From Blastocatellia bacterium (lineage in GTDB: Bacteria > Acidobacteriota > Blastocatellia > HR10 > J050), in contig JALSQX010000020.1 of the NCBI GenBank assembly GCA_026985075.1, forward strand, positions 158,966 through 222,965: a stretch of DNA of 64,000 nt, read 5' to 3'. Below, piece after piece: positions 14,773 through 62,598 of the stretch; within the stretch, counting starts at the first letter, position 1, and each line of letters opens with the position of its first letter. The notes under the pieces are model-generated. The model made no database searches, was not told the DNA's origin, and worked only from the letters and a program-made list of their open reading frames with translations. A program made the position numbers and the translations under genes.

Positions 14773-14870
14773 ATGCCGCTCTCTCCGTTGGTGGGAATCT
14801 CACTTCCTTCACGTTTTGTTTGTCGGGGTCTGTCTCTGAATGCCGCTCTCTCCGTTGGTGGGAATCTCAC
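14773..14870. repeat. Exact 31-bp direct repeat x2 (ATGCCGCTCTCTCCGTTGGTGGGAATCTCAC) separated by a 36-bp spacer
   Basis: The copies lie at 14773..14803 and 14840..14870 and are identical. They sit in the convergent 3' region, and the second copy overlaps the last codons of the 1203-aa membrane gene. There are only two units and no cas genes. Confidence 0.6.
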
Positions 14871-17800
14871 CCCCTCGAAGTCGAGTCCGCCCGTTCACTC
14901 TCCTTGTCGGCATGCCAAAGGGATGTCGACTGGTTTTTGCCTACGGAATTTCGCCCTGATAGATATTCCATATCGATGGCCATGAGCATACCCGCGATGA
15001 CCAGCGTGGCGATCAAAGGCCACTCCGTCCACCCCATTCTCAACGCCTGTCCGGCTTCGACGAAGAGCAGAAGCCCAATGATGTACATCAAAGGCGGTGG
15101 CATGGCGGTGACGATGAACAGATGCATCGCTGCCACTGCCCCGGCGCCTGAGAGGATGAGATGAATCAAGCGGCCGGTGACGATGAACGTCCAAGCGGGA
15201 TATCCGATGATCAACACCAGCACGATCGCCAGCCCGACGCTCAAGACACGCCGTTTTCCTCCTCGCCCAGGCATTCGAGCCTCACTGGATGGAACGAGCG
15301 ATGATCGCGCAGCCGATGCCGCACCGGAGAGGATCCAGCCGAGATAGATGGCCACCGGAATGAGATAGAACTCCAGCAGCCCAACATGACCGATGCGACC
15401 GATGATGATCCACGCGGAGACGAGGAAAATGGCCGCTATATGCTGATGAAGCGACCGGCGACGAAGCCAATACATATCCATACTGATGAGCGCCAGCAAT
15501 AGCGCCGCCAAAGCGCCACCGAGGTGACGGTGCGCCAGGCCAAACGTCAAGCCACTGCCAATGAGGACGTACACATGCGCCCCATACCACAGGACGCGCT
15601 CGCGCCACCAGTCATCCTCGCGGCGCTCATACCACCACTGTGCCAATACATGCAGTCCCGCCAAGGTAGCGAATGCCAGCCCATAGTGACCGATGCTCAC
15701 ACCATACGTCGCCAAGAATGTGTAGACGAGTACGCCGGAGGCTACTGAGGCGAGAATATAAGCCGTGATGAACGTCGATCGGAATCGTTGCTGGACATAA
15801 GGCGGGAGGATACCCTTCCAACCGATCGTCACGATGATGAAGCCAATGATGGCAATGAGGAGCGCCGACAGATCGTACTGACCCCAGGGAGCATTGACGC
15901 CGAGCAACAATAAGAGCACCCCGTTAGCCAGCCATAATCCCATGTTCGGCAGCCGCGGACGGAATCCATCCTCCCACGTGCGGCGCATCTCCATGCGGCT
16001 GAGAATGAGCAGGAAGAGGTAATAGACGCCCAGGCACAGCGTTGCCGAGATCGCTCCCGCGCCGATGACCAGCACGGCGAGGCCGGCCGTCACCAATCCC
16101 AGGGCGAGGAGCTTCGATGAGGTGGTTTTCTCCCGTTCGGCCAGTATGGTGAACAGGAGACCGAGGGCGAGAAGATAATTCGCTTCCACGCGCGGCGAAT
16201 AATGTTGTCCAATAGCCTGGGGGAGTGGCAGCCGCACGGCGAGATTCGGAATAGTTCGCCAGAGCACGTTGATCACCCCAATCACGATCGCTCCGTAACC
16301 GAGCGCCCTCAAGACGCGGAGAGGATGGAGGCGGCCAGCCACCGGATCAGCCGCCAGGCGACTTTGAACGGTCAGTGCCATCAGCCAGGCCAGCATGGCC
16401 AGGAGATTCAGCGGCGAACGCCAGATGGTCAACCCGATGGCCAGGAGCGAGAAAACGTGCGCGAAATGCATGACGCTGGCCCGACTCAGCAACTGGCGAT
16501 GACGGGCCATCACGGCATACCCGAGCAGATAGATCACGCTCATCACAGCGAAGGCCAATCCATAGATTTCCACTCGAGCACCGGCGAGCTGCAGCACAGC
16601 GAACAGTAAGAATCCCACGGCCACATGGGCCATCTCACATCCGAGGAGCAGGAAGGATCGAACGGCCCGTCCCATGGGCGGAGACCAGGCCGGCTCCCAC
16701 CCATAGCGCATCAAGGGAAACATCGCTGCCAGGATGAAGAAGCTGATCGGGTGGTACTGATTCCCGATGAGGCTGATGAGGAGCGTCGACAGAGCCACGA
16801 GGAGCGCCACACTCAAGGTGAATCGAATCCTGACAACGACACGATGAGAATCCTCGATCCGGCGAGCGCGATTGATCCACCATTGCGTGAGCATCATGAG
16901 CAGGAGAGAGAACACAGCGAGCACCAGCGTCGATTGCGTCGGGAATACACCGAAAGCGACCAGGACGACTCCCGCCGCCAGGTGAATCACGCTCAACGCG
17001 TATGACACAATGGCACCAGTCCATTCCGAGAGGGCGAACAGTATCAACGCTCCGATACCCAATGCCGCCATGACGGCCAACAAACTGTATGCCGCCGTCA
17101 CTGCCGCCAACACGAGCGTCAGGTATCCGGCAACGGCCAGAGCGCGCCGAGGATAGAGATGCCCGAACCATGCACTCGCCCAACTGTAGATACTCCCCAT
17201 GGCGAGGAGGAGGACGATGACCCAAGAGGCTTCTCCGAACAGGAGCACCGTCCCGGCGCTCGACGCGGCGAGGAGGAGGAGCGGCGCGGCGAAACCGATG
17301 AGTCCTTCCACAGCCCGCATCCCTCCTGATGGTGGCCTCGCCGGTTCGCGCTCGGCGCGACGGACAATGAGACCGCCCGCCCAGGAGATGGCCACGAGCA
17401 AGAGCGCCAGAGCGCTCCAGGAGCTTCCCGATGGCATGGTCACCTGAACCGATCCCGACGCTTGAAGCCGATAGGTCAAAACGCCGATCGTGTGCACCTG
17501 GACGAGCCCATCCCAGAACGCTTGCTGAGAAATGACGATCATCCCACCCAGGACGAAGGCGAACCAATAGGCCGACTCGGTCAACGCCGCCCAACGCCGC
17601 GAGCGAAAGCCGTTGCCAATGCCCACCAGCAGCACCACGCCGAGAGCAGCCAGCACGACGTGGTATTGCTGCCCGATTGAGAGAGAGAGCGTACCGGCCA
17701 ACACGAACGCGAGGACTCCCCATCCCAACATGCCCAACAGGATACCGATTCCGATGGCGCGATTGAGCCAGGCGAGGGTGAAGAGCCATCCCGCAGCCAG

Positions 17801-18478
17801 ATACCCGCTGGTCAACAACACGCTCGAGGGATGCGGAAAGAACGACGGCCCGAAGAGGACGACGAGCGTCAGGAGCAACAGGGCACCCGCCGCCGCGTAA
17901 TGCTGTTTCAGCGGAGGATCGAGCGCGTGACAGAGGAGAGCGATGAGCCCGCCTATTCCTACGAGCAACATCGAGGCCAGCGAGGCGGGCAACCCCAGCG
18001 TGAACGGGAGGAAGTAAAGAGGGATGGCCAGATTCACGGCGAACAAATACGCCCGATGAGGACGTCCACTGAGCGGGAGACGCCGCTCGACGAGATCGGC
18101 AAAGATGATGTAAGCCAATGTCACCAGGGCGGCGAAAGAAGCGCTCAACGGCAGGTTCCCGACAATGGGCGGGATGGTCGTCACGCTCACCATGTAGAGC
18201 GTCAGTGGGAGCAACACATCGCCTAACGCGATGAGCCATCGACTGAGCGAAGACGCTGGATCGCTCCGATGAACAGCCCATCCCACCGCCCAGACGACCA
18301 GATTGATCCCCATCCAACTGCCGACGAAACCAACCGATGAGGAGAGCGGAGATCCGGTCAGGCGAATGGCCGAGGCCAGAGCCGCCATCAGGATGAGCAC
18401 TAATCCCCCGTAACTGACAATCGCCATATGCCGGGCGCGCATCGTCAGCCCTTGGTGTCGATGTCCATGGTTGAGCAT
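14867..18478 (-). CDS. Very large (1203 aa) polytopic integral membrane protein of unknown function (DUF2339-like?)
   Basis: It is almost entirely hydrophobic helices, with 30 or more predicted TM segments rich in G/A/L/W. It has no recognisable catalytic motifs. The ATG at 18478 was confirmed. Confidence 0.6.
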   Translation of the reverse strand: MLNHGHRHQGLTMRARHMAIVSYGGLVLILMAALASAIRLTGSPLSSSVGFVGSWMGINLVVWAVGWAVHRSDPASSLSRWLIALGDVLLPLTLYMVSVTTIPPIVGNLPLSASFAALVTLAYIIFADLVERRLPLSGRPHRAYLFAVNLAIPLYFLPFTLGLPASLASMLLVGIGGLIALLCHALDPPLKQHYAAAGALLLLTLVVLFGPSFFPHPSSVLLTSGYLAAGWLFTLAWLNRAIGIGILLGMLGWGVLAFVLAGTLSLSIGQQYHVVLAALGVVLLVGIGNGFRSRRWAALTESAYWFAFVLGGMIVISQQAFWDGLVQVHTIGVLTYRLQASGSVQVTMPSGSSWSALALLLVAISWAGGLIVRRAEREPARPPSGGMRAVEGLIGFAAPLLLLAASSAGTVLLFGEASWVIVLLLAMGSIYSWASAWFGHLYPRRALAVAGYLTLVLAAVTAAYSLLAVMAALGIGALILFALSEWTGAIVSYALSVIHLAAGVVLVAFGVFPTQSTLVLAVFSLLLMMLTQWWINRARRIEDSHRVVVRIRFTLSVALLVALSTLLISLIGNQYHPISFFILAAMFPLMRYGWEPAWSPPMGRAVRSFLLLGCEMAHVAVGFLLFAVLQLAGARVEIYGLAFAVMSVIYLLGYAVMARHRQLLSRASVMHFAHVFSLLAIGLTIWRSPLNLLAMLAWLMALTVQSRLAADPVAGRLHPLRVLRALGYGAIVIGVINVLWRTIPNLAVRLPLPQAIGQHYSPRVEANYLLALGLLFTILAEREKTTSSKLLALGLVTAGLAVLVIGAGAISATLCLGVYYLFLLILSRMEMRRTWEDGFRPRLPNMGLWLANGVLLLLLGVNAPWGQYDLSALLIAIIGFIIVTIGWKGILPPYVQQRFRSTFITAYILASVASGVLVYTFLATYGVSIGHYGLAFATLAGLHVLAQWWYERREDDWWRERVLWYGAHVYVLIGSGLTFGLAHRHLGGALAALLLALISMDMYWLRRRSLHQHIAAIFLVSAWIIIGRIGHVGLLEFYLIPVAIYLGWILSGAASAARSSLVPSSEARMPGRGGKRRVLSVGLAIVLVLIIGYPAWTFIVTGRLIHLILSGAGAVAAMHLFIVTAMPPPLMYIIGLLLFVEAGQALRMGWTEWPLIATLVIAGMLMAIDMEYLSGRNSVGKNQSTSLWHADKESERADSTSRG

Positions 18479-48616: not shown

Positions 48617-53071
<4,455 letters not shown>

Positions 53072-53075
<4 letters not shown>

Positions 53076-53728
53076 CGGTGACACACAGAGCAATCGGTCA
53101 ATCTCTCTTTGGGAATGTGATATTCCTTGATGAGTTTTCGGCCCAGGGCGAGTTGATCGCCGGTCGGCTTCCAGTGGAGATTGAACACCTCTTCGCGCGG
53201 ACGGAGATAGCGTTCCGGCTGACGATGACATTGCAAGCACCACTCCATGCGGAGGGTGTTCACCGCCCACATCAACGGCATCTCATCAACCTGTCCATGG
53301 CAGGTCACACAGCCGACACCCTTGTTGACATGAATGCTGTGATCGAAATAGACGAATTCGGGCAGATCATGGACGCGCACCCACTGGAGCGGTTTGCCCG
53401 TCCGCCAGCTCTCCCGCACCGGTTCTAACATGGCGGCATCCTTATGAATCTGGGAATGGCAGGTCATGCAGGTTTCTACCGGAGGGAGTCCGGCAAACCG
53501 ACTCTCCTCTGCCGTGGTGTGACAATACCGACAATCGATGCCGAGTTGACCAACATGATGTCGGTGACTGAAGGGCACCGGTTGCTCGCGAGGAACATTC
53601 ACCCGCGTCACATAAGATGACCGGTCGATGGCCGCCAGCACCGTGGTCAGAATGGCCAGGACGACCACCGCCCCGACGATGCTCAGCTTGGCAATGACGT
53701 TGAAGCTTCGATGAAAAATCTGAGCCAT
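53072..53728 (-). CDS. actA: Alternative complex III pentahaem cytochrome c subunit ActA
   Basis: Five CxxCH motifs are present (CRYCH, CMTCH, CVTCH, CLQCH, CSVCH) after an N-terminal TM anchor. Confidence 0.85.
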
Positions 53729-53969
53729 CTCACCCTCTCCGCCAAAGTGGCACTGTTCGCCTTACGTCATTCCGTTCAAAAATACGCCCGCGAATAAAAA
53801 GGCCTGGCGCGAAGGAGGCACTCTCCAGGAGCGAGTCTCTCGACCAGCGCGGTCACGCTCATTTTCCCTCAGGTACTTGATTGTTCGACTGATGATGAAC
53901 ACTCGCCGCCTTCGCTCACCCCGTCCAAATCTTCATTCTTTATTTGATGACCTCAGTCAAATAGGCGGA

Positions 53970-53998
53970 AGTATAGCAAAGAAGCCCAGGCAAGTAAA
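53970..53998 (-). promoter_or_regulatory. Candidate promoter for the act operon, followed by an untranslated leader of about 240 nt
   Basis: On the minus strand: -35 TTTACT (53993..53998), a 17-bp spacer, -10 TATACT (53970..53975). It lies in an AT-rich 500-bp intergenic region. Confidence 0.3.
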
Positions 53999-54227
53999 GA
54001 GATGTTTTTGACCTCGCGTTCACGGAGAACCTTCCATCAGCGTGAAGGTATTTCTACCGATCAGTCCCCGATAGGGAGGGATGAACGGGGGCAGAACGCC
54101 GCATCGGTCGTTGAAATGGGGGATCGAATCCGGACGCGTCCTGGTTGATTTCGGGAACACCGTGAGGCAGGAGTGAGCGGAGCGAGGATCGAGCTGGGCC
54201 GATCCCGGTCGATCCTCGCCGCCGGAG

Positions 54228-54902
54228 CTAGTGTTTGCCCGGATCGAGGGGCACGCCTCTCCGCTGATAGGTGATGTACGCTTCCAGGGCCAACATCCGG
54301 GGATCGTCGAGAGCCAACGGTTTCCCTTTGACTGGATTCTCGATGCACCAGTTGATCATATCGCGGAGAGCGGCCACCCGCTTCAACTGCGTTTGGAATT
54401 TGGGGTAGGTCTCCGGGTGCGTATTGGCGGCGTCCGGATGACACATATCGCAGGAGATGCCGATGGTTCCGCCGATGGCCTTCCAGTCGTGAAACAGACG
54501 ACGACCTTCCTCCACCAATCGCTTCTGCTCCCGTTGCCAGATCAATCGATCTCGTCGCGTCCACTTGGACGCCTGCTTGGCCTGTTGCTGAGCGTAGCGC
54601 GCCATCAGGCGACGGGCGACCAGGCGGGCCTTCTCCGGGGGCAGGACCTCTCCCTCGCGGACATCGGCGATCTCCATCTGGGTGCGCCCATCGCAGAGTT
54701 GAACGACCAGGTGACCGTCTTCGCTCTGGGGCTGTGGATGTTGGGATGGCGGGCGCTGTTGAGCGGCAGCCAGCGGGATGATATCCGTCACGACGTTCAA
54801 CCAGCTCCCCGGCGCCGCGCTATCGGACGACAGGGGCCACAGCCCACACCAACCGATGATGAACGCGCCCATGATGATCAGCTTGACATGTCGTATTCTC
54901 AT
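54228..54902 (-). CDS. Secreted monohaem c-type cytochrome (single CDMCH), unknown function
   Basis: A signal peptide (MRIRHVKLIIMGAFIIGWCG) and a Gln/Pro-rich linker precede a C-terminal cytochrome c fold. The ATG at 54902 follows a GGGAGGA RBS. Confidence 0.6.
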   Translation of the reverse strand: MRIRHVKLIIMGAFIIGWCGLWPLSSDSAAPGSWLNVVTDIIPLAAAQQRPPSQHPQPQSEDGHLVVQLCDGRTQMEIADVREGEVLPPEKARLVARRLMARYAQQQAKQASKWTRRDRLIWQREQKRLVEEGRRLFHDWKAIGGTIGISCDMCHPDAANTHPETYPKFQTQLKRVAALRDMINWCIENPVKGKPLALDDPRMLALEAYITYQRRGVPLDPGKH

Positions 54903-54938
54903 GGCATCCTCCCTCATCGCGTGCTGGATCTCAAGGTT

Positions 54939-56066
54939 TCAGTACGATGGAAACTGCGGTGCCGGTGGCCGGGCTTCTTTGCCCCAGGATTCCAGATAGG
55001 CCTTGGCCACGGTGATAGGATTCCGGCTCCACAGGTTATAATGCTTGTCCACGTACCCGCTCCCATACACATCTACTGTCCCATCGCCCGTCCCATCGGC
55101 CTCATCGAACGGATCGGCGCGATCCATCTGCACGGTGAGCTTGGGCAGACCCTCGGGCGCGTAAGGCCATGGCCAGGCTGTGGAGAGCATGCCGTGGAAG
55201 TGGATATTCCTGATCCGATTGGTCAACAACTGGTGCGTATGCCCGTGAATGACGGTGACCGATCGGTAGGGGAAAAGAATCTCCTGCACCGCCTCGGCAT
55301 CTTCGGTCCAGAAGTTCCAGGGGCGGTAGTACTTATACAGCGGCGAGTGAGAGAAGACGATGATGGGCGTCTCTGGAGAAACGTTGGCCAGATCCCGCCT
55401 CAACCACTCGCGTCCCTCGGGACCGACTTCGAACCGGCTCTGAATGGGATTATCCAACCCGGCCACCGTCTTCATCCGCTCCATCGGCGTCATGTTTCGC
55501 GCCGTCCAGAAGTCCTTCTCGTTGACGCTCATCAAGACGATGAAGTGAATGCCCTTATGATCGAAGGAATAGTTGGGCGGGCCGAATAGTTCCTGCCATT
55601 TTTCTCCCATGTCCAGGAACCAATCGTGTTCGCCGACCATCATCTTCACCGGCGCTTTCAATTCGCTCAGAATCTGTTTGCCCAGTTCGAGTTCTTGAGG
55701 TTGACCGAGTTGCGCCAGGTCGCCGCCGAACAGCACGAAGTCGGGTTGAGGATCGAGCGCATTGACATCTTCGACGGCGCGCATGGCCGCTTTGACGAAT
55801 CGTTCGTTCAACCGGCGCTCATAAAGATGCGTGTCGGAAATGTAAGCGAACTGAAACAGCGGCTTCTCATCCTCGCTGGCCCGCACGACATCGACCAGTT
55901 GGAACGAATGGGGCGGCAGGACCGTCTTGGCCGTGGTCACGGCGGCGGCCATACCCGCCACCTTGAGGAACGCGCGGCGGTCAAGGCGCTTGACGGCAGC
56001 GAAGAAGTCGGCCCGCTCCTGGCGGTACTGTTGTTCGCGTTGTTTCCATTTCAATGGCCACATCAT
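54939..56066 (-). CDS. Tat-exported calcineurin-like metallophosphoesterase
   Basis: It carries a Tat motif (DRRAFLKVAGMAAAVTTA) and MPE motifs (ISDTHL, GGDL, GEHD). The ATG at 56066 follows a GGGAGG RBS. Confidence 0.75.
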   Translation of the reverse strand: MMWPLKWKQREQQYRQERADFFAAVKRLDRRAFLKVAGMAAAVTTAKTVLPPHSFQLVDVVRASEDEKPLFQFAYISDTHLYERRLNERFVKAAMRAVEDVNALDPQPDFVLFGGDLAQLGQPQELELGKQILSELKAPVKMMVGEHDWFLDMGEKWQELFGPPNYSFDHKGIHFIVLMSVNEKDFWTARNMTPMERMKTVAGLDNPIQSRFEVGPEGREWLRRDLANVSPETPIIVFSHSPLYKYYRPWNFWTEDAEAVQEILFPYRSVTVIHGHTHQLLTNRIRNIHFHGMLSTAWPWPYAPEGLPKLTVQMDRADPFDEADGTGDGTVDVYGSGYVDKHYNLWSRNPITVAKAYLESWGKEARPPAPQFPSY

Positions 56067-56139
56067 GCACCTCCCTGGTGAGGTTTCGTCGGCGATTCGC
56101 CTTTCGAGTCGCGTTTCATCGCTGACGATTCCGGTTCGC

Positions 56140-57351
56140 TCATTTTCCCGGGGCGATGGTGATCTCTCCTCGGGCCAGCGCCCGGGCATAGGTGCTGGTC
56201 AATGTTCTGAGGAACGCCTCCAGATCGTTCATCTCCTGTTCGGTCAGATGAAGCTCGATGATGCCCCCGTCGAGGTTGGGATTCGGTTCGCCGCCTTTGT
56301 TGTAGAATTCGATGACCTCGCGCAACGTCTTCATGCTTCCATCGTGCATGTAGGGACCGGTCAACGCGACATCCCGGAGCGGCGGCGTCTTGAAGGCGCC
56401 CACGTCCTTAGGCTGTCGCGTGACGAGGAAGCGTCCCAATTCGGAGAAGCCTTCGGCGAGCGAGAGCTTATCGAGTTCGGCCGCGGTGAGCTCTCCACGT
56501 TCGGCCAGTTGCTGCACGCGCCGGGCGAGCGTCTCGAAGTTCTTCGTCGCTTTCATGCCCACGCCGATATTGTGATATTTGAAATCGGTGAAGAACGGCG
56601 ACGAAGGGTTGAACTCGTGACAGGTGATGCAGCGTGCTTTCCCTTTGAACAGTTCCCAGCCCCGTTTGGCCGCCGCGCTGATCGCCTTCTCATCCCCAGC
56701 GATGAACCGGTCGAACGGAGCATCGCCCGACAGTTGAGTCCGTTCGAAGGCGGCGATGGCCTGGACGATATGATCGATGGTGATGGGATCTGTGCCCCCG
56801 AACACTTCTCGAAACCGCTTCACATACTCGGGGATCTGTTTGAGCTTGGCGACCACGGCCTCGTGCGAGGGCATGGCCATCTCCACCGGATTGACGAGAG
56901 GCTGCTTAGCTTGATCTTCGAGCGTCTTGGCCCGCCCATCCCAGAACTGCTCTTCGTTGAACATGGCGTTGAGAATGGTGGGCGCATTTCGCGCTCCTTT
57001 CTTTCCTCCCACTCCCTCGGAGACCGGCTTCCCATCGGTGAAGGCGCGCCGCGGATCGTGACAGGTCGCACAACTGACGGTGTTATCGGCAGACAAACGG
57101 GTATCGAAATAGAGGGCCTTGCCGAGGGCGACTTTGGCCTCGGTCATGGGATTGTCCTCGGGGATCATCAATTCCCATAAATCGGCGGGAATGCCGAGAG
57201 GGAACGTCATCTGGAATTCTTTCGCCTGACCGGCCGCCCACGCCGGCCAGGAGAGCGAACCCGGAGAGCGCCCGGATGAAGTCCCCAGGAGGGCGATCAG
57301 TCCCATGACGAGCATCACCATCTTCACCCTGCGGAGAGATCGTCGTCTCAT
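56140..57351 (-). CDS. Di-haem cytochrome c peroxidase (CCP/MauG family)
   Basis: A signal peptide is followed by two haem motifs (CATCH, CITCH) and FYNKGG. The ATG at 57351 follows an AAGGGGA RBS. Confidence 0.85.
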   Translation of the reverse strand: MRRRSLRRVKMVMLVMGLIALLGTSSGRSPGSLSWPAWAAGQAKEFQMTFPLGIPADLWELMIPEDNPMTEAKVALGKALYFDTRLSADNTVSCATCHDPRRAFTDGKPVSEGVGGKKGARNAPTILNAMFNEEQFWDGRAKTLEDQAKQPLVNPVEMAMPSHEAVVAKLKQIPEYVKRFREVFGGTDPITIDHIVQAIAAFERTQLSGDAPFDRFIAGDEKAISAAAKRGWELFKGKARCITCHEFNPSSPFFTDFKYHNIGVGMKATKNFETLARRVQQLAERGELTAAELDKLSLAEGFSELGRFLVTRQPKDVGAFKTPPLRDVALTGPYMHDGSMKTLREVIEFYNKGGEPNPNLDGGIIELHLTEQEMNDLEAFLRTLTSTYARALARGEITIAPGK

Positions 57352-57593
57352 CGCTTCATCCCCTTCACCGCATCGACGAGCCGCGGCACCAACGCCGATT
57401 CCGCGTTGCTCCATCGACGCGTCTTCTGGTACGTTTTTTCCTCGTTCTTCACTGGGTTATCACAACTGACGGCGCGTTTTATTCCCGAAAAATTTCTTCG
57501 GGGAATAATCGGGCGCTTCGATTGTGATACTGGGTGAGGGGTGCTTCTCCTCGTCGCCACCGACGAGGGCAGTGATCGTTGAGCGAGAAAGGG

Positions 57594-58154
57594 ATGATCC
57601 AGCACGAGGCGGAGCCACTGAAGTCACGAAATGTCGATCAGGAGGTGCTGGCATACCTCGACGCCCTCTATGGCTATGCGATGTCATTGGTGCGAAATCC
57701 AACCGAAGCCGAGGATCTGGTGCAAGAAGCCTGCTTGCGAGCCCTCAAAAGCGCCCGGCGACATCCTCCCACCGGCGATCTGAAAGCGTGGCTGTTCACT
57801 ATCTTGCGCAACCTGTGGATCAACCACCAGAGACGGCGGCAGCGCGGACCCGAGTTCATCTCTCTGGGCGCTGAGAGCGACGAACAGGAACTCCCTCTGG
57901 ACGGGATGACCGATCACCGACATCGTCCGGACCGACTGCTGGACCGCAGCTTGCTTCAAGCGAACATTCGAGCCGCCATCGAGAGCCTTCCGGCCATCTT
58001 CCGCGAAATCATTCTCCTGCGTTACGTGGAGGGATTCAGCTACAACCAGATCGCCGGCATTCTTGGCTGCCCGGCGGGAACGGTGATGTCGCGTCTCAAT
58101 CGGGCTCGGGCGGCGCTTCGTCAACGACTGTTGGTCAGTGACCGAGGACCATGA
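57594..58154 (+). CDS. ECF-subfamily RNA polymerase sigma factor (sigma-70 regions 2 and 4)
   Basis: Region 2 (LVQEACLRALK ... WLFTILRNLWINH) and region 4 (LRYVEGFSYNQIAGILGCPAGTVMSRL) are both recognisable. The ATG at 57594 follows GAGAAAGGG. Confidence 0.85.
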   Translation: MIQHEAEPLKSRNVDQEVLAYLDALYGYAMSLVRNPTEAEDLVQEACLRALKSARRHPPTGDLKAWLFTILRNLWINHQRRRQRGPEFISLGAESDEQELPLDGMTDHRHRPDRLLDRSLLQANIRAAIESLPAIFREIILLRYVEGFSYNQIAGILGCPAGTVMSRLNRARAALRQRLLVSDRGP

Positions 58155-59008
58155 CTGGTGAGGGAGAGGCAACGGTGAGCGATCACGTCATCGACCACAT
58201 CACGCTCTATCTGGACGACGAGCTGCAGGAGGAAGAGCGCGTCGCCTTCGAGGCGCACGTCCATCAGTGCCCCGAGTGTTGGGCGCGGCTGGAGGAGGAG
58301 CGTGAATTGGTGATGGCGATTCGCCAGGCTGCCGCGCCGCCTTGCGCTCCCCAATATTTGCGAGCGCGCATTGAAGCCATGCTCGGCCGCTCGTCGCTCA
58401 GGGATGGTGTGAGGAATATTCGTCTCTGGCTTCCCCTCGCCGCAGCGGCCATGGTGATCATGAGCGTGATGGCGTGGCTGGCGATGCGATCTGGCCCTCG
58501 CTCCACCGCTCAACCCTCCGCTTTCGCCCGCCTGGCTGTGGATACCCACCAGAGATACACGCGCGGCCAACTCCCGCTGGAGATCACCAGCCGTTCGCCA
58601 CAGGAGATCTCCAACTGGTTTGCCGGGAAGCTCCCCTTCAATCTCAAGCTCCCGGACTACCCCGAAGGCCCCGGTCAGTCGAAGCCCTACGAGGTGGTGG
58701 GTGCGCGACTGATCGGATTCCAGCAGGATTACGCGGCGTACGTGGCCTATCGCCTGCGCCAACGCCCCATCTCGCTCCTGGTGACCTCCGAGACGGTCGC
58801 CCAACCCACCGGCGGCGAGGAGATCGCCTGGCGGGGATTGCGATTTCACTTTGACGCCATCGACGGCTGGAAAGTGCTCACCTGGTCAGATAACGGCCTC
58901 ACCTATGCCCTGGTGTCCGACTTCGAGGAACGCGGCCAAGCCTCCTGTATCGTGTGCCATCCCGGAGCGCAGGATCGGCCAATGCTGGAGGGATTGAATC
59001 GGCGATGA
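58151..59008 (+). CDS. Zinc-finger (ZAS-type) anti-sigma factor with TM helix and periplasmic domain
   Basis: The HxxxCxxC motif (HVHQCPECW) and one TM helix are present. Its start overlaps the sigma factor stop (ATGA). Confidence 0.7.
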   Translation: MTGEGEATVSDHVIDHITLYLDDELQEEERVAFEAHVHQCPECWARLEEERELVMAIRQAAAPPCAPQYLRARIEAMLGRSSLRDGVRNIRLWLPLAAAAMVIMSVMAWLAMRSGPRSTAQPSAFARLAVDTHQRYTRGQLPLEITSRSPQEISNWFAGKLPFNLKLPDYPEGPGQSKPYEVVGARLIGFQQDYAAYVAYRLRQRPISLLVTSETVAQPTGGEEIAWRGLRFHFDAIDGWKVLTWSDNGLTYALVSDFEERGQASCIVCHPGAQDRPMLEGLNRR

Positions 59009-59178
59009 TCCGACGATGACATCTCTTATGTCTCGCCCACCGTCGAGCTGAAAAAACCACCGCGGAGGCACAGAGAACGCAGAGATCCTGCAACAGGCTC
59101 TTTTCATCCCCTCGATGTGGCTCGAGCGCGCCATAGGCGACTCCCTCGATGGTCACAGACGGAGAGCGCCTCTATTCG

Positions 59179-62100
59179 TCATTGGAACGCCACGGAGGAT
59201 GGACGAGGCTTCTCTGAAGCCGTCACCGGCGACTGGGGAGTGGCCGGAGAACGCGACGGGCTGCGAAGTCGTCCGATGCCTCGTCGCTCCCACTTGAGAT
59301 ACTGAGTGGCGACGGCGTGAATTTTCTGGCCGGTGAGCTGATGAAGCCGCTCGGCGTAATGCTCGACGTCAACCGGGCGCTCACCGAGGAAGACGTGCCG
59401 CGCGTAAGCGAGTACGCGGGCCGGATGGGCTTGCAGGCGATCGCGCTGAGCGCCGATGGCGGCATTGATGCCCAACGTCACCATTTCCTCTTCGATGGGA
59501 CCGGCCACCAGCCACTGCAGGTGACGCTGTACCTCAGCGAGCACTTCTGCTTCATCGGTCGCACTCGGCGTCATCCAAACGAAAAAGGCGCTGGCCAGCG
59601 CGCGGGGATCGAACCGGGCGCCCACCCGATAAGCCCATCCGTGGCGATCGCTCAACGACGCGGTCAATCGACCGCCGGGTCCAACGAGGATCTGCTCGAT
59701 GACGTCGAAAATCTCTCGCTCGACGACTTGATGAGCGGGCACGAGGAATCCGATGGCCAGCGCTGGCATCCGAGACGTCGCCGTCTGCTGGCGAGGAGCG
59801 GGTTGGAGTTGAGGAATCCGGGCGCGAAACGTCCGTTGAATCTCGCGGCGATGAAACTGGCGAGCGATGATCGTCGAGATGAGCGTCGATCCATCGGTAT
59901 CTCCTACGACGATCACCAGCGGATATTGACGGCCGATCGTCTGACGGTGCCAGTCTCGCAACCGCTCGGGCGTCAGTTGCTCGACGGTCTCCACCCGTCC
60001 CCATGGAGGCACGCTATAGCTATGCTCACCGACCAGTGCGCGCCAGGCCAGATCGACCGGTCGGGGGGAGCGATGGCGGAGTTCGTAAAGGAGTTCGGCG
60101 CGGGCCCGCTCGACCTCGGCCTCGTCAAACAGGGGGCGTTCCACAATGTCGACGAGCAACTGCAAGGCCTGATCCTGATTGCGCGATAAGACGTGGAGGA
60201 TGAACCCGAAGAAATCCGGCTCGTTCACCCATTGGAGTTCACCGCCTAACTGCTCCAGCTTCATGATCACCTGTCCGGCCGGGAGCGTCACTTCCTGGCC
60301 GCGTTTCAGCTCCTCTCCGGTTTGATAATCCCAGTGGCTCTTGACGCCGCGCCACATGGTGCGCAACATGAGCTCGGTAATGCCATAGTTAGTGGCATCT
60401 TCGAATAAGCGCCCTCCATGAAAAAAGAGGCCCATGGCGATGGTGGGACGCGATTGATCGACGCGCACGTAGGCGCGCGCTCCGTGCAGCACCGAATAAT
60501 TACGGATCGGCTCCGGCTGCGGAGAGAAGATCACCGCCTCCAGTTCCTCACCCGGTCGCCGGCGCTGTCCCTGCCGAATGAGGGGCACGGCCGGCGCCCG
60601 CTTCGCCCGAGCCGCCGAGATCGCTTCATCAAGGCCGGGAACTTTGCTCGCGATCCACTGAGCGAACGTCTCACCGGTCACTCCCTGGGCGGCGACCCGC
60701 CGAGGTAAAACTTCATAGACCGTCGTCCGGGAGAGCGTCAAATACCGGGCCGCTGCGCGGCGTACCTGCTCGGCGGTCACGGCGCGCATCCGTTCCAGGA
60801 CGCGGTCAGCCTCTCGGTAATCGCCGACGGTTGCTTCAGCGACGGCCAGATCTTCGGCCTCTTGCTCCAGACGGGCGCGCCGATCATAAAAGGCGTGCTC
60901 CAGGAGCGCTTGAGCGCGCTGAAGCTCGCCCGGAGAGAGAATCTCGCGCCGCAGGCGCTGAATGGCTTCGAAGAAGACAATTTCAGCCTGGTTGAGATTG
61001 TCCGGAGGCACGCGAAGTTGAAACGTCCACAGCTCCCTGTTGCCGAACTCGATCCTCCGCATGAAGATCTCGCGGACGAGGGGATTGGTTTCCTGAAGCG
61101 CCCAGCGCAATCGCGCCCCGCGACCCGTCATGAGCACCGCCGCCAAGACATCGAGTGCCGGACGATCCGCCGTTCTCACTTCATCGAACCAATAGCCGAT
61201 ATTGAGCAGAGCGGGATCGATCTCGGCGATGCGCTGAGCATACCGGAGTTGCTCTCTGGCCGGCTGCTCGCCCGCCGCCGCCTCCCTCGCTTCCCCACTC
61301 GACTTGGATTTCTGAGCCGTCGATGGCATCTGGTGAGGCTTCTCGCCCCGCTCCTCATCCCCCCTCTCCAGGCCGGGACGCACCGGCCATCCCCCATAGG
61401 CGCGCTGGATCGTCTCCAGGACGGCGAACGGACTGATCGCTCCGACGATGCTGATGACTACGTTCTCCGGCCGATAGCGCGATCGGTAGAAGTCGAGAAC
61501 CTGATCCCGCGTTATCGAGCGCACCTCGCCCCCACCGAGAGCGCGGTCGGCGAGACGATCGCGGAGGATCAACTCCACGAGCGCGGCTTGAGCCCAAACA
61601 GAGGGGGCGGCGAACTCACTCTGACGCTCCTTCTGCATCAATCGAGCCTGACGCTGGACGACCTCCGGCTCGAACAGCGGATGTTGGAGGATGTCTGCCA
61701 GAATCTCAATGGCCGATGTGGCTTTCTCCGGGGAGAGGACGAGCCGATAGCTCGTATACTCGCTGGCGGTGCGCGTCTGAATGACGGCGCCCAGCGCTCG
61801 CAACGCGCGCGCCGCTTGAGATCCCGGACGGGCAGTCGTACCCTGCCAGAGGAGGCGGGCGACCAGCTCGGCGACACCTCGCGCTGAAGCGGGCTCATCC
61901 TGTCGCCCCGCCCGGACGACGGCGGTGATGGCCACCAGCGGCAGGGCGTATTTCTCGCGCACGATGAGGGTGAGTCCGTTGCTCAACGCGAATCGGCTGG
62001 TGGCCGTCCTGGGATCGAGTTCGCGTTTCTTGATCTCACCGCCTGGAGGAATAGGCGCCGACGGCCGCGTCGGCGACGGCTTCTCGGGCGGTTTGGTGGG

Positions 62101-62298
62101 CGGTTTCTTCGTCTCAGTGGGCGGTGGCCTTCGCCGAGTCGGGCGCCGACGGCCACTCTGCGGCCAGCTCCCGGCGGGGAGAACGAGAGCGAACACGATG
62201 AGAAGCGCGACGCCGAGCGTGAGCGTTCTCTTCACCCCCTGAAAAATGGAGCGCACGATGCTATCTTGCGCCACGTCTCTCAACGAGTTCATCCTCAT
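59179..62298 (-). CDS. Membrane-anchored tandem M16 (pitrilysin-fold) protein with both HxxEH zinc sites replaced (predicted non-catalytic)
   Basis: Two M16 + M16_C units are present. The positions equivalent to GxAHxxEHMxFKGT read GVAELVARLLWQGT and GITELMLRTMWRGV. An N-terminal TM helix is followed by a Pro/Lys-rich linker. The ATG at 62298 follows GAGGGG. Confidence 0.7.
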   Translation of the reverse strand: MRMNSLRDVAQDSIVRSIFQGVKRTLTLGVALLIVFALVLPAGSWPQSGRRRPTRRRPPPTETKKPPTKPPEKPSPTRPSAPIPPGGEIKKRELDPRTATSRFALSNGLTLIVREKYALPLVAITAVVRAGRQDEPASARGVAELVARLLWQGTTARPGSQAARALRALGAVIQTRTASEYTSYRLVLSPEKATSAIEILADILQHPLFEPEVVQRQARLMQKERQSEFAAPSVWAQAALVELILRDRLADRALGGGEVRSITRDQVLDFYRSRYRPENVVISIVGAISPFAVLETIQRAYGGWPVRPGLERGDEERGEKPHQMPSTAQKSKSSGEAREAAAGEQPAREQLRYAQRIAEIDPALLNIGYWFDEVRTADRPALDVLAAVLMTGRGARLRWALQETNPLVREIFMRRIEFGNRELWTFQLRVPPDNLNQAEIVFFEAIQRLRREILSPGELQRAQALLEHAFYDRRARLEQEAEDLAVAEATVGDYREADRVLERMRAVTAEQVRRAAARYLTLSRTTVYEVLPRRVAAQGVTGETFAQWIASKVPGLDEAISAARAKRAPAVPLIRQGQRRRPGEELEAVIFSPQPEPIRNYSVLHGARAYVRVDQSRPTIAMGLFFHGGRLFEDATNYGITELMLRTMWRGVKSHWDYQTGEELKRGQEVTLPAGQVIMKLEQLGGELQWVNEPDFFGFILHVLSRNQDQALQLLVDIVERPLFDEAEVERARAELLYELRHRSPRPVDLAWRALVGEHSYSVPPWGRVETVEQLTPERLRDWHRQTIGRQYPLVIVVGDTDGSTLISTIIARQFHRREIQRTFRARIPQLQPAPRQQTATSRMPALAIGFLVPAHQVVEREIFDVIEQILVGPGGRLTASLSDRHGWAYRVGARFDPRALASAFFVWMTPSATDEAEVLAEVQRHLQWLVAGPIEEEMVTLGINAAIGAQRDRLQAHPARVLAYARHVFLGERPVDVEHYAERLHQLTGQKIHAVATQYLKWERRGIGRLRSPSRSPATPQSPVTASEKPRPSSVAFQ

Positions 62299-62598
62299 CC
62301 CCTCGGCGTGGCCCATAGGGTCATGGGTGAGTCCTTTGATCGGTGCTCGCCGGGACGTTCTCCCAGGCCTCGACCGGCGGCTCGGGTCGAACAGCCAGCG
62401 GATCAAAAGTGGGGAAGTATTGGCGGCGCTGCGCCGTTTGGAATTAATGCCCACACCCTAATTGTACCTTTTGGATGAGCGCGGGTCCAGGTGGGCATAT
62501 TCGCCGGATGCATCAATCAAACATTGGGATCTCCTCATTCGAGCGAGGAGGACCATGATCACCGGAGAGCAGCCCTCAGGGCAATGAGCCCCTCCTGC

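Follow-up and report, generated by a model that had tools for sequence, protein, structure and literature searches.

The closest described relatives of the gene set considered here are the Sox system and TsdA, the MauG-type di-haem enzymes and the SigR-type regulators. SoxB is a binuclear enzyme of the metallophosphoesterase superfamily exported by the twin-arginine translocation (Tat) pathway, and both SoxA and TsdA use His/Cys haems. Among the di-haem enzymes, BthA reportedly reaches a bis-Fe(IV) state, as MauG does, yet it turns over H2O2; a gene for a putative purple acid phosphatase always adjoins that of BthA, and the authors of the BthA study suggest that this partner is oxidised by the enzyme (PMC6405878). 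In a 64,000-nucleotide stretch of the genome of a Blastocatellia bacterium (contig JALSQX010000020.1, positions 158,966 to 222,965), referred to below as the window, we analyzed a locus of five genes in which a di-haem enzyme, a metallophosphoesterase (MPE) and a monohaem cytochrome c, together called the trio, are encoded divergently from an extracytoplasmic function (ECF) sigma factor and its anti-sigma factor. Each of these parts can be placed in a known superfamily, and the regulation follows the classical ECF scheme; the trio itself is uncharacterised. No description of the trio or of its MPE, which carries the variant metal motif GEHD, was found in the literature searched, where the nearest precedent is the pairing of BthA with PhosA. 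As a composite explanation we propose, at what we consider even chances, that the locus is a self-contained five-gene unit in which the sigma factor switches on an inducible, Sox-like periplasmic redox module.

Proteins of the trio

All five genes listed in the first-pass annotation were confirmed at the positions it gave; their families were assigned by Pfam and NCBIfam profile searches with the five window proteins. The trio is co-directional on the − strand and starts with the gene of a MauG/MbnH-type di-haem enzyme of the CCP_MauG superfamily (56140..57351; 403 aa; PF03150). It is followed after 76 nt by the gene of an MPE predicted to be Tat-exported and to have a GpdQ/Rv0805-like fold (54939..56063; 374 aa; PF00149), and after a further 21 nt by that of a monohaem SoxA/TsdA-type cytochrome c with predicted His/Cys ligation (54228..54917; PF21342). 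Alignment with homologues places two of the starts inside longer open reading frames: the likely true start of the di-haem gene (open reading frame 56140..57414) is the ATG at 57351 (MRRRSL...), and the conserved start of the MPE gene (open reading frame 54939..56189) is the ATG at 56063 (MWPLKWK...).

The cytochrome had been described at first as a protein with no obvious characterised homologue, which was not borne out. It carries a single CDMCH haem motif, matches the SoxA/TsdA cytochrome c domain PF21342 (E-value 4.9e-14; score 52.5 bits, cut-off 27), aligns with structures of SoxA and, at E-values of only 1e-4, of TsdA, and has 6740 homologues in the database, many of them labelled "thiosulfate dehydrogenase" by JGI. 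In the alignment, its segment MINWCIE falls on the stretches of TsdA (RIGDCFE, the region of the haem-1 ligand) and of SoxA (MINACRT / FRGCIRD) that hold the axial Cys, and the haem of the trio cytochrome is predicted to be His/Cys-ligated. Among the top 120 homologues, a single CxxCH is present in 120/120, INWC in 117, an N-terminal [LVIM]CDG in 113 and a terminal G[KR]H in 118; the window protein accordingly has an extra N-terminal module with a conserved cysteine (LCDG, Cys75) and ends in GKH. It differs from TsdA, a di-haem protein, by this invariably single CxxCH, and from the cytochrome of the Sox system by being monohaem, by the additional cysteine module and by its score against the SoxA equivalog TIGR04484, which at 47.5 bits lies under the cut-off of 110.

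The MPE (PF00149 at 9.6e-18) retains the metal motifs SDTH, GGD, FSHSP and GHTH, and its motif III reads GEHD, in which the Asn ligand is replaced by Glu. GEHD is found in 120/120 homologues and GNH[DE] in 0/120, and the protein is 66-89% identical across Acidobacteriota, Myxococcota, Binataceae and a Methylocystis plasmid. The best fold match of its AlphaFold2 model (pLDDT, the per-residue confidence score, 68) is GpdQ (E 7e-14), followed by Rv0805 and then by purple acid phosphatases; the SoxB family profile gave no match to the sequence at E <= 0.01. Invariant loops rich in Trp and Tyr (STAWPWPYAPEG, YKYYRPWNFW) are not confidently placed in the model. The twin-arginine motif DRRAFLK (DRRAFLKVAGMAAAV), of which R29, R30 and F32 are invariant in 49 homologues, predicts that the MPE is a Tat substrate. 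The residues that precede it (1-43, 55935..56063; MWPLKWKKREEQY..ER..FF.AVK.L) are conserved across phyla and include a predicted helix, H3-25, a conserved helical stretch that is unusual as the n-region of a signal peptide. A Tat proofreading chaperone may dock here; no gene for such a chaperone was seen near the MPE gene.

The di-haem enzyme contains two CxxCH motifs and matches PF03150 at 2.5e-63. It had been annotated as a cytochrome c peroxidase (CCP), a label that stands at the level of the superfamily, the CCP_MauG fold being present, and fails beyond it. Indeed, the Met that ligates the electron-transfer haem of bacterial CCPs (bCCPs), as in VKIMSS of the Paracoccus enzyme, is replaced by the Tyr of an EFYNK motif, which aligns exactly with MauG Tyr294 (LFYNK, residues 292-296) and with DIYSEGG of MbnH and is invariant in 7 orthologues from three phyla. 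The C-terminal domain searched alone likewise has MbnH and MauG as its best matches. Because a Tyr stands where bCCPs have their Met ligand, the enzyme is not a canonical bCCP. On the other hand, the N-terminal peroxide-binding domain is nearest to true bCCPs (203 bits, against 151 for MauG), and the alignment of orthologues reveals that the Gln and Glu of the peroxide pocket (LEDQAKQP...NPVEM), the inter-haem Trp (QFWDGR) and the Ca-site residues RNAPT are kept, as in bCCPs, with Val at the position of the distal His of the reductively activated enzymes. Scores for the MauG equivalog TIGR03791 (268.9) and the MbnH equivalog TIGR04039 (256.9) are under their cut-offs of 443.85 and 362.85, and BthA is distant (71.8 bits). 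No mau genes occur in any locus inspected, and the neighbours of the gene are those of the MPE and the cytochrome, MbnP not being adjacent. We regard the protein as a distinct MauG-type enzyme with a predicted His/Tyr second haem and an apparently intact peroxide-binding haem pocket. It would share with MauG, MbnH and BthA the two c-type haems, the inter-haem Trp and an H2O2-reactive five-coordinate haem pocket, and its gene, like that of BthA, lies beside the gene of a secreted metallophosphoesterase-type protein (PMC6405878).

These features bear on the function suggested in the first-pass annotation, periplasmic peroxide detoxification, in which a working CCP would receive its electrons from the monohaem cytochrome while the anti-sigma factor senses thiol or redox stress. 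The intact Gln, Glu, Trp and Ca-site residues and the nearness of the N-terminal domain to bona fide bCCPs argue for such a function, and so does the related BthA, which turns over H2O2 despite its bis-Fe(IV) state (PMC6405878). The presence of Tyr, not Met, on the electron-entry haem argues against it. Transfer of electrons from the monohaem cytochrome to the di-haem enzyme is possible.

The sigma/anti-sigma pair and its promoters

The two regulatory genes overlap on the + strand and are divergent from the trio. The first (57594..58154, with an alternative TTG start at 57579) encodes a SigR/SigH-like ECF sigma factor with Sigma70_r2 and r4_2 domains, which scores 110.9 bits against TIGR02937 (cut-off 42.9); its best specific model is SigH_actino, at 132.7 bits under the cut-off of that model. 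The second (58151..59008) encodes a membrane-anchored anti-sigma factor of the zinc-associated (ZAS) type with a zf-HC2 domain (2.9e-9; 37.3 against a cut-off of 22.2). Its HxxxCxxC motif is invariant in 65 aligned homologues and present in 96/96 full-length matches, so that the conservation of Cys and His on which the first-pass reading had been made to depend is upheld. The combination of an ECF sigma factor with an HxxxCxxC anti-sigma domain and predicted autoregulation resembles the SigR-RsrA and SigH-RshA (ECF12-type) and RsiW systems.

This resemblance is limited to residues 1-75, which are RsrA/RsiW-like, and the score against RsrA (TIGR03988) is 46.3, under the cut-off of 62.5. Unlike RsrA, the protein is anchored in the membrane. 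A cytoplasmic HxxxCxxC domain is followed by a transmembrane helix (~90-113), a periplasmic alpha/beta domain of ~140 residues (~120-257) and, in the C-terminal tail, an invariant S-C-x-V-C-H motif (residues 265-270, 58943..58960) that includes a CxxCH. Residues H36, C40, C43, H133, H233, C266, C269 and H270 are invariant in the 65 sequences, and the C-terminal CxxCH is found in 120/120 homologues from Acidobacteriota, Tectomicrobia, and Chloroflexota-labelled and delta-proteobacterial metagenome-assembled genomes (MAGs). The AlphaFold2 model has a pLDDT of 83, rising above 90 in the periplasmic domain, and shows the CxxCH tail as disordered. The periplasmic domain has no sequence-profile match in Pfam or the PDB, and a fold search of the PDB gave no significant match, with a weak RseB/MucB/PsbP-like resemblance. 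A transmembrane helix together with a conserved periplasmic domain bearing an invariant CxxCH points to periplasmic sensing. We infer that a periplasmic signal would be perceived by this domain and the CxxCH tail, and a c-type haem is probably attached covalently to the tail. An anti-sigma factor bearing such a haem motif was not found described in the literature searched. The thiol or redox sensing that had been attributed to the protein as a member of the ZAS class cannot be inferred from its class, given the membrane anchor, the conserved periplasmic domain and the invariant CxxCH. With respect to peroxide detoxification, the nearness of the sigma factor to SigH is a point in favour, whereas a membrane-bound anti-sigma factor with a periplasmic domain, unlike the soluble RsrA, is a point against.

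The intergenic region between the sigma and di-haem genes (~227-242 bp) contains the palindrome reported in the first-pass annotation, an inverted repeat TATTCCCGAA / TTCGGGGAATA at 57480..57507 with a one-base bulge. Each arm of this imperfect palindrome proves to be the -35 box of a bipartite motif, GGAAT-N15/16-KTGT, so that the repeat consists of two back-to-back boxes (GGAATA) with 16 nt between them. A consensus-promoter search, which had been proposed as a check on whether the sigma regulon includes the CCP operon, was run over the full 64-kb window and gave two matches, both in this intergenic region and facing apart, one of them on the side of the CCP operon; a Markov model predicts 1.45 scattered matches per window. 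Both read GGAAT-N15-TTGT(GATA): one is a predicted ECF-type promoter toward the sigma gene (57502..57525, + strand), which would provide autoregulation, and the other a predicted ECF-type promoter toward the di-haem/MPE/cytochrome operon (57462..57485, − strand). Of 78 related loci, 59 show the motif on the side of the sigma gene, 65 show it on the divergent side and 49 carry both copies, compared with ~0.3 in shuffled controls, and the consensus is gGGAATA(A/T)-N-cGTGTTaT. Moreover, in two acidobacterial trios which are not linked to a sigma pair (L001 and L013) the strict motif precedes the di-haem gene by 74 and 66 nt, respectively; in the genome of the former the sigma pair lies on another contig (L021). 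Because the motif is found on both sides in 49 of the 78 loci and also upstream of sigma-unlinked trios, the regulatory link is well supported. The connection first drawn between the sigma pair and the divergent operon is thus retained, and the promoter sequences strongly support the prediction that the pair drives the trio through divergent promoters of the autoregulated type. We take the GGAAT -35 box and the G/T-rich -10 element to be similar to the SigR/SigH consensus (GGAAT...GTT), a likeness consistent with SigH_actino as best specific sigma model. This promoter type and the linkage of sigma factor and operon would also suit peroxide detoxification.

The palindrome had been read as a possible operator, that is, as the binding site of a separate dimeric repressor or activator. 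In favour of this, the 10/11-bp inverted repeat is kept in L010 and L011, whose intergenic regions align with that of the window. However, the two GGAAT boxes lie anywhere from 1 to 166 nt apart in 50 loci, each arm stays 15-16 nt from the KTGT downstream on its own side, and the unlinked trios are preceded by single, non-palindromic copies. The spacer between the -35 and -10 elements is fixed at 15-16 nt and measures 15 nt in 89/100 sites. A variable distance between boxes together with a fixed promoter spacer indicates two independent promoters and not one dimer operator. On these spacing statistics the operator was rejected, and we consider it highly improbable.

Gene neighbourhoods and the function of the trio

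Using the anti-sigma factor as bait, we retrieved 80 genomic loci. The trio recurs as a block between unrelated neighbours in Blastocatellia-like MAGs, Binataceae, Cystobacter fuscus and a Methylocystis plasmid, and the divergent sigma/anti-sigma pair adjoins it in the window and in L010, L011, L014, L028, L040, L043, L048, L052, L055 and L072. In 39 of the 80 loci the first divergent gene encodes a two-haem protein, which is of two kinds: the Tyr type of ~400 aa, followed by the MPE and the cytochrome, and a distant type of ~465 aa, often followed by a propeller like glucose/sorbosone dehydrogenases and with no MPE. The second kind is seen in many Pyrinomonadaceae loci (L029-L093; for instance L046, 5924-7330, and L030, 1485-2771). 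This two-CxxCH protein has Phe at the position of the MauG Tyr (VEFFNLVL), and its gene faces the same type of sigma/anti-sigma pair and the same promoter motif; downstream there are usually genes for the glucose/sorbosone-dehydrogenase-like beta-propeller, a prolyl-oligopeptidase-family protein and an Asp/Glu racemase.

Eight loci, of a variant which we call type B, come from Tectomicrobia, Binatia, delta-proteobacterial MAGs and Eisenbacteria, and all of them (8/8) have one gene order: a cupredoxin-like/CarboxypepD_reg-domain protein (245-289 aa), the MPE, the cytochrome and a SoxY-SoxZ fusion. Here the MPE is of the same family (45% identity), with GEHD and SWPWPYAPEG kept; the cytochrome, of 152 aa, is also of the same family and is devoid of the N-terminal Cys module; and the fusion protein matches PF13501 (2.4e-18) and PF08770 (2.6e-17) and has the conserved GGC carrier motif. 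Genes for a multihaem cytochrome and a COX1-type oxidase come next in most of the type-B loci that are long enough to show them. The same type of sigma/anti-sigma pair adjoins the operon in 8/8, with the motif facing it in 6/8. The core of this variant is also found on pSymA of many Sinorhizobium meliloti strains, where the MPE/cytochrome pair (L097, CP140920.1, 458670..463832; L095) adjoins annotated SoxY and SoxZ genes, with a c-type cytochrome, an FAD oxidoreductase, SCO, hemA, groEL and a cbb3-type oxidase as further neighbours. In strain RCAM1115 an IS66 insertion splits the first gene of the pSymA type-B cluster. A more distant arrangement occurs on the megaplasmid of Ralstonia solanacearum (L098, CP052087.1, 1948743..1951671) and in altogether 137 Ralstonia plasmid records. 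In it a sigma factor (38% identity) and an anti-sigma factor (24%, without CxxCH) are divergent from a GEHD MPE with a Tat signal (32%) and a CuA-like cupredoxin of 125 aa (CDIFCGTGHETM), with back-to-back GGAATAA boxes between the two gene pairs. No di-haem gene lies near the MPE in the type-B, S. meliloti or Ralstonia loci. From this comparison it follows that the invariant core is the GEHD MPE with an electron-transfer protein, the di-haem enzyme being one of several interchangeable partners of the MPE.

The proposed mechanism of the unit can be outlined on this basis. The ECF sigma factor would be held by the membrane-spanning ZAS-type anti-sigma factor and, when released, would fire the two back-to-back promoters, that of its own operon and that of the periplasmic trio. 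The His/Cys haem would join a thiosulfate-like sulfur oxyanion oxidatively to a thiol, in the manner of SoxAX and TsdA; this thiol would belong to SoxYZ in the variant loci, and in the window it may be the LCDG cysteine of the cytochrome itself. This cysteine is confined to cytochromes of loci without SoxYZ and is a candidate for a built-in carrier thiol. The MPE would then hydrolyse the terminal sulfonate in a SoxB-like role, and electrons would exit through the di-haem enzyme to H2O2 or, in other lineages, via the cupredoxin-like protein and a haem-copper oxidase to O2. The trio resembles the Sox system in its periplasmic location, in a SoxA-family domain with the axial-Cys position, in a Tat-exported enzyme of the MPE superfamily and in the encoding of the MPE/cytochrome pair together with SoxY and SoxZ in variant loci. 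Taken on its own, a Sox-like redox function of the trio is plausible, at chances that we put a little under even.

Several observations weigh against this interpretation. The model of the MPE predicts a GpdQ-like fold, with GEHD, and not a 5'-nucleotidase of the SoxB type. No SoxY or SoxZ gene was found within 8-10 kb of any type-A trio and no SoxX gene beside the trio in any locus examined; the window locus is likewise devoid of SoxX, SoxYZ and SoxCD and has the MauG-type di-haem enzyme in addition, and no SoxYZ, type-B multihaem cytochrome or cupredoxin-like genes were found in the window. In Ralstonia the GEHD MPE is paired only with the CuA-like cupredoxin. The same type of sigma/anti-sigma pair also stands beside a different two-haem protein and a propeller without an MPE, so that the signal may be a general periplasmic oxidant and not a sulfur substrate. 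Finally, the haem attachment of the anti-sigma factor, the His/Cys ligation of the cytochrome and all the catalytic steps are inferred from sequence.

The Ralstonia pair is better accommodated by a different possibility, namely that the GEHD MPE is not a pure hydrolase but a redox-active binuclear-metal enzyme acting on another periplasmic substrate (e.g. a phosphate-like oxyanion or a metal ion), with an obligate small electron carrier that is a His/Cys cytochrome, a cupredoxin or a di-haem protein. An electron-transfer gene always adjoins that of the MPE, including the CuA-like cupredoxin gene of Ralstonia; in 120/120 sequences, Glu in place of Asn gives the metal site a further carboxylate; and Tat export suggests metal loading in the cytoplasm. 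However, to our knowledge there is no precedent for a non-hydrolytic enzyme with the MPE fold, and the repeated linkage to SoxYZ is more simply explained by SoxB-like hydrolysis. We therefore find a redox-active MPE rather improbable. Another conceivable role for the di-haem enzyme would be the maturation of its neighbours: through a bis-Fe(IV) state it would modify residues of the MPE, or of the cytochrome, into a protein-derived cofactor, in parallel to MauG with preMADH, MbnH with MbnP and, as proposed, BthA with PhosA. Such a role would be in line with the Tyr ligand position identical to MauG Tyr294, with the invariant Trp/Tyr-rich loops of the MPE, poorly placed in its model, and with the precedent of the pairing of BthA with a purple acid phosphatase (PMC6405878). 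On the other hand, BthA is only distantly related to the di-haem enzyme, and the MPEs of the type-B, S. meliloti and Ralstonia loci keep their signatures with no di-haem gene nearby; the di-haem enzyme is therefore no obligatory maturase, and maturation appears improbable.

The neighbourhoods also bear on peroxide detoxification. The same regulator type is found beside other di-haem proteins, as would suit it, whereas it assigns no role to a Tat-exported MPE that is so highly conserved across phyla, the cytochrome belongs to a catalytic His/Cys family and not to the class-I electron carriers, and the MPE/cytochrome pair persists without the di-haem enzyme beside SoxYZ. Together with the Tyr in place of the bCCP Met, this travelling of the MPE and His/Cys cytochrome core with SoxYZ calls the original assignment into question, and we consider peroxide detoxification unlikely. 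The function of the trio looks more like redox chemistry of sulfur compounds than generic peroxide defence. In a more far-reaching form, which we put forward tentatively and hold to be less likely than the Sox-like function by itself, the locus would represent an unrecognised Sox-like periplasmic system of sulfur oxidation widespread in soil bacteria. In such a system the GpdQ-type, Tat-exported GEHD MPE would take the place of SoxB, the monohaem His/Cys cytochrome with its Cys-bearing N-terminal module would replace SoxAX and SoxYZ, the MauG-type di-haem enzyme would couple oxidation to H2O2, and expression would be turned on by the ECF sigma factor, whose anti-sigma factor would sense the periplasm via a covalently bound c-type haem.

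Flanking features and significance

Alternative complex III (ACIII), whose ActA is encoded at 53072..53728, had been considered a part of the same neighbourhood. Its adjacency is real in the window, but a spacer of 499 bp separates ActA from the cytochrome gene and, among ~95 related loci, the arrangement recurs only in the near-identical L014. The scan of the 64-kb window found no ECF motif upstream of actA. Inclusion of ACIII in the unit was accordingly rejected; its position is a lineage-specific accident, outside the unit. A generic scan for sigma-70 promoters and terminators gave as its sole site a sigma-70-like one in the ActA/cytochrome spacer, upstream of ActA, and is uninformative for the sigma/di-haem intergenic region. 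In the same spacer, 9 nt past the cytochrome stop, a hairpin at 54182..54219 has a perfect 11-bp stem (GCGAGGATCGA / TCGATCCTCGC) and a 16-nt loop, without a T-run; it may mark the end of the trio transcript, before a separate ACIII promoter region. An Rfam scan of 53000..59500 matched no RNA family.

On the other side, directly downstream of the anti-sigma gene and on the opposite strand, 59179..62454 (−) encodes a protein of 1091 aa with two tandem M16 (insulinase-like) peptidase units and a Pro/Lys/Arg-rich N-terminal region; the gene is also a neighbour in L014 (73% identity) and is absent beside the other loci. Further away, a strong AT-skew anomaly at 16-18 kb (0.335) coincides with the gene of a highly hydrophobic polytopic membrane protein of 1203 aa (14867..18478, −); it is compositional in origin and does not mark a mobile element.

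The pair of MPE and His/Cys cytochrome is carried by thousands of soil and sediment bacteria among the Acidobacteriota, Myxococcota, Binatia, Methylocystis and Sinorhizobium and, more distantly, Ralstonia. Cystobacter, Corallococcus, Methylocystis and field strains of S. meliloti are cultured carriers in which experiments can be done. The unit supplies a clean and testable ECF promoter consensus, as well as a candidate for a periplasmic, haem-based sensor carried by an anti-sigma factor, which, if true, would constitute a new class of anti-sigma sensor. It also adds a third setting in nature in which MauG-type His/Tyr di-haem enzymes occur, here beside an MPE, like the unexplained pair of BthA and PhosA. 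If the trio indeed provides a SoxB-independent route for sulfur oxyanions, the potential for sulfur cycling would be underestimated in dominant soil phyla whose annotations show no Sox.

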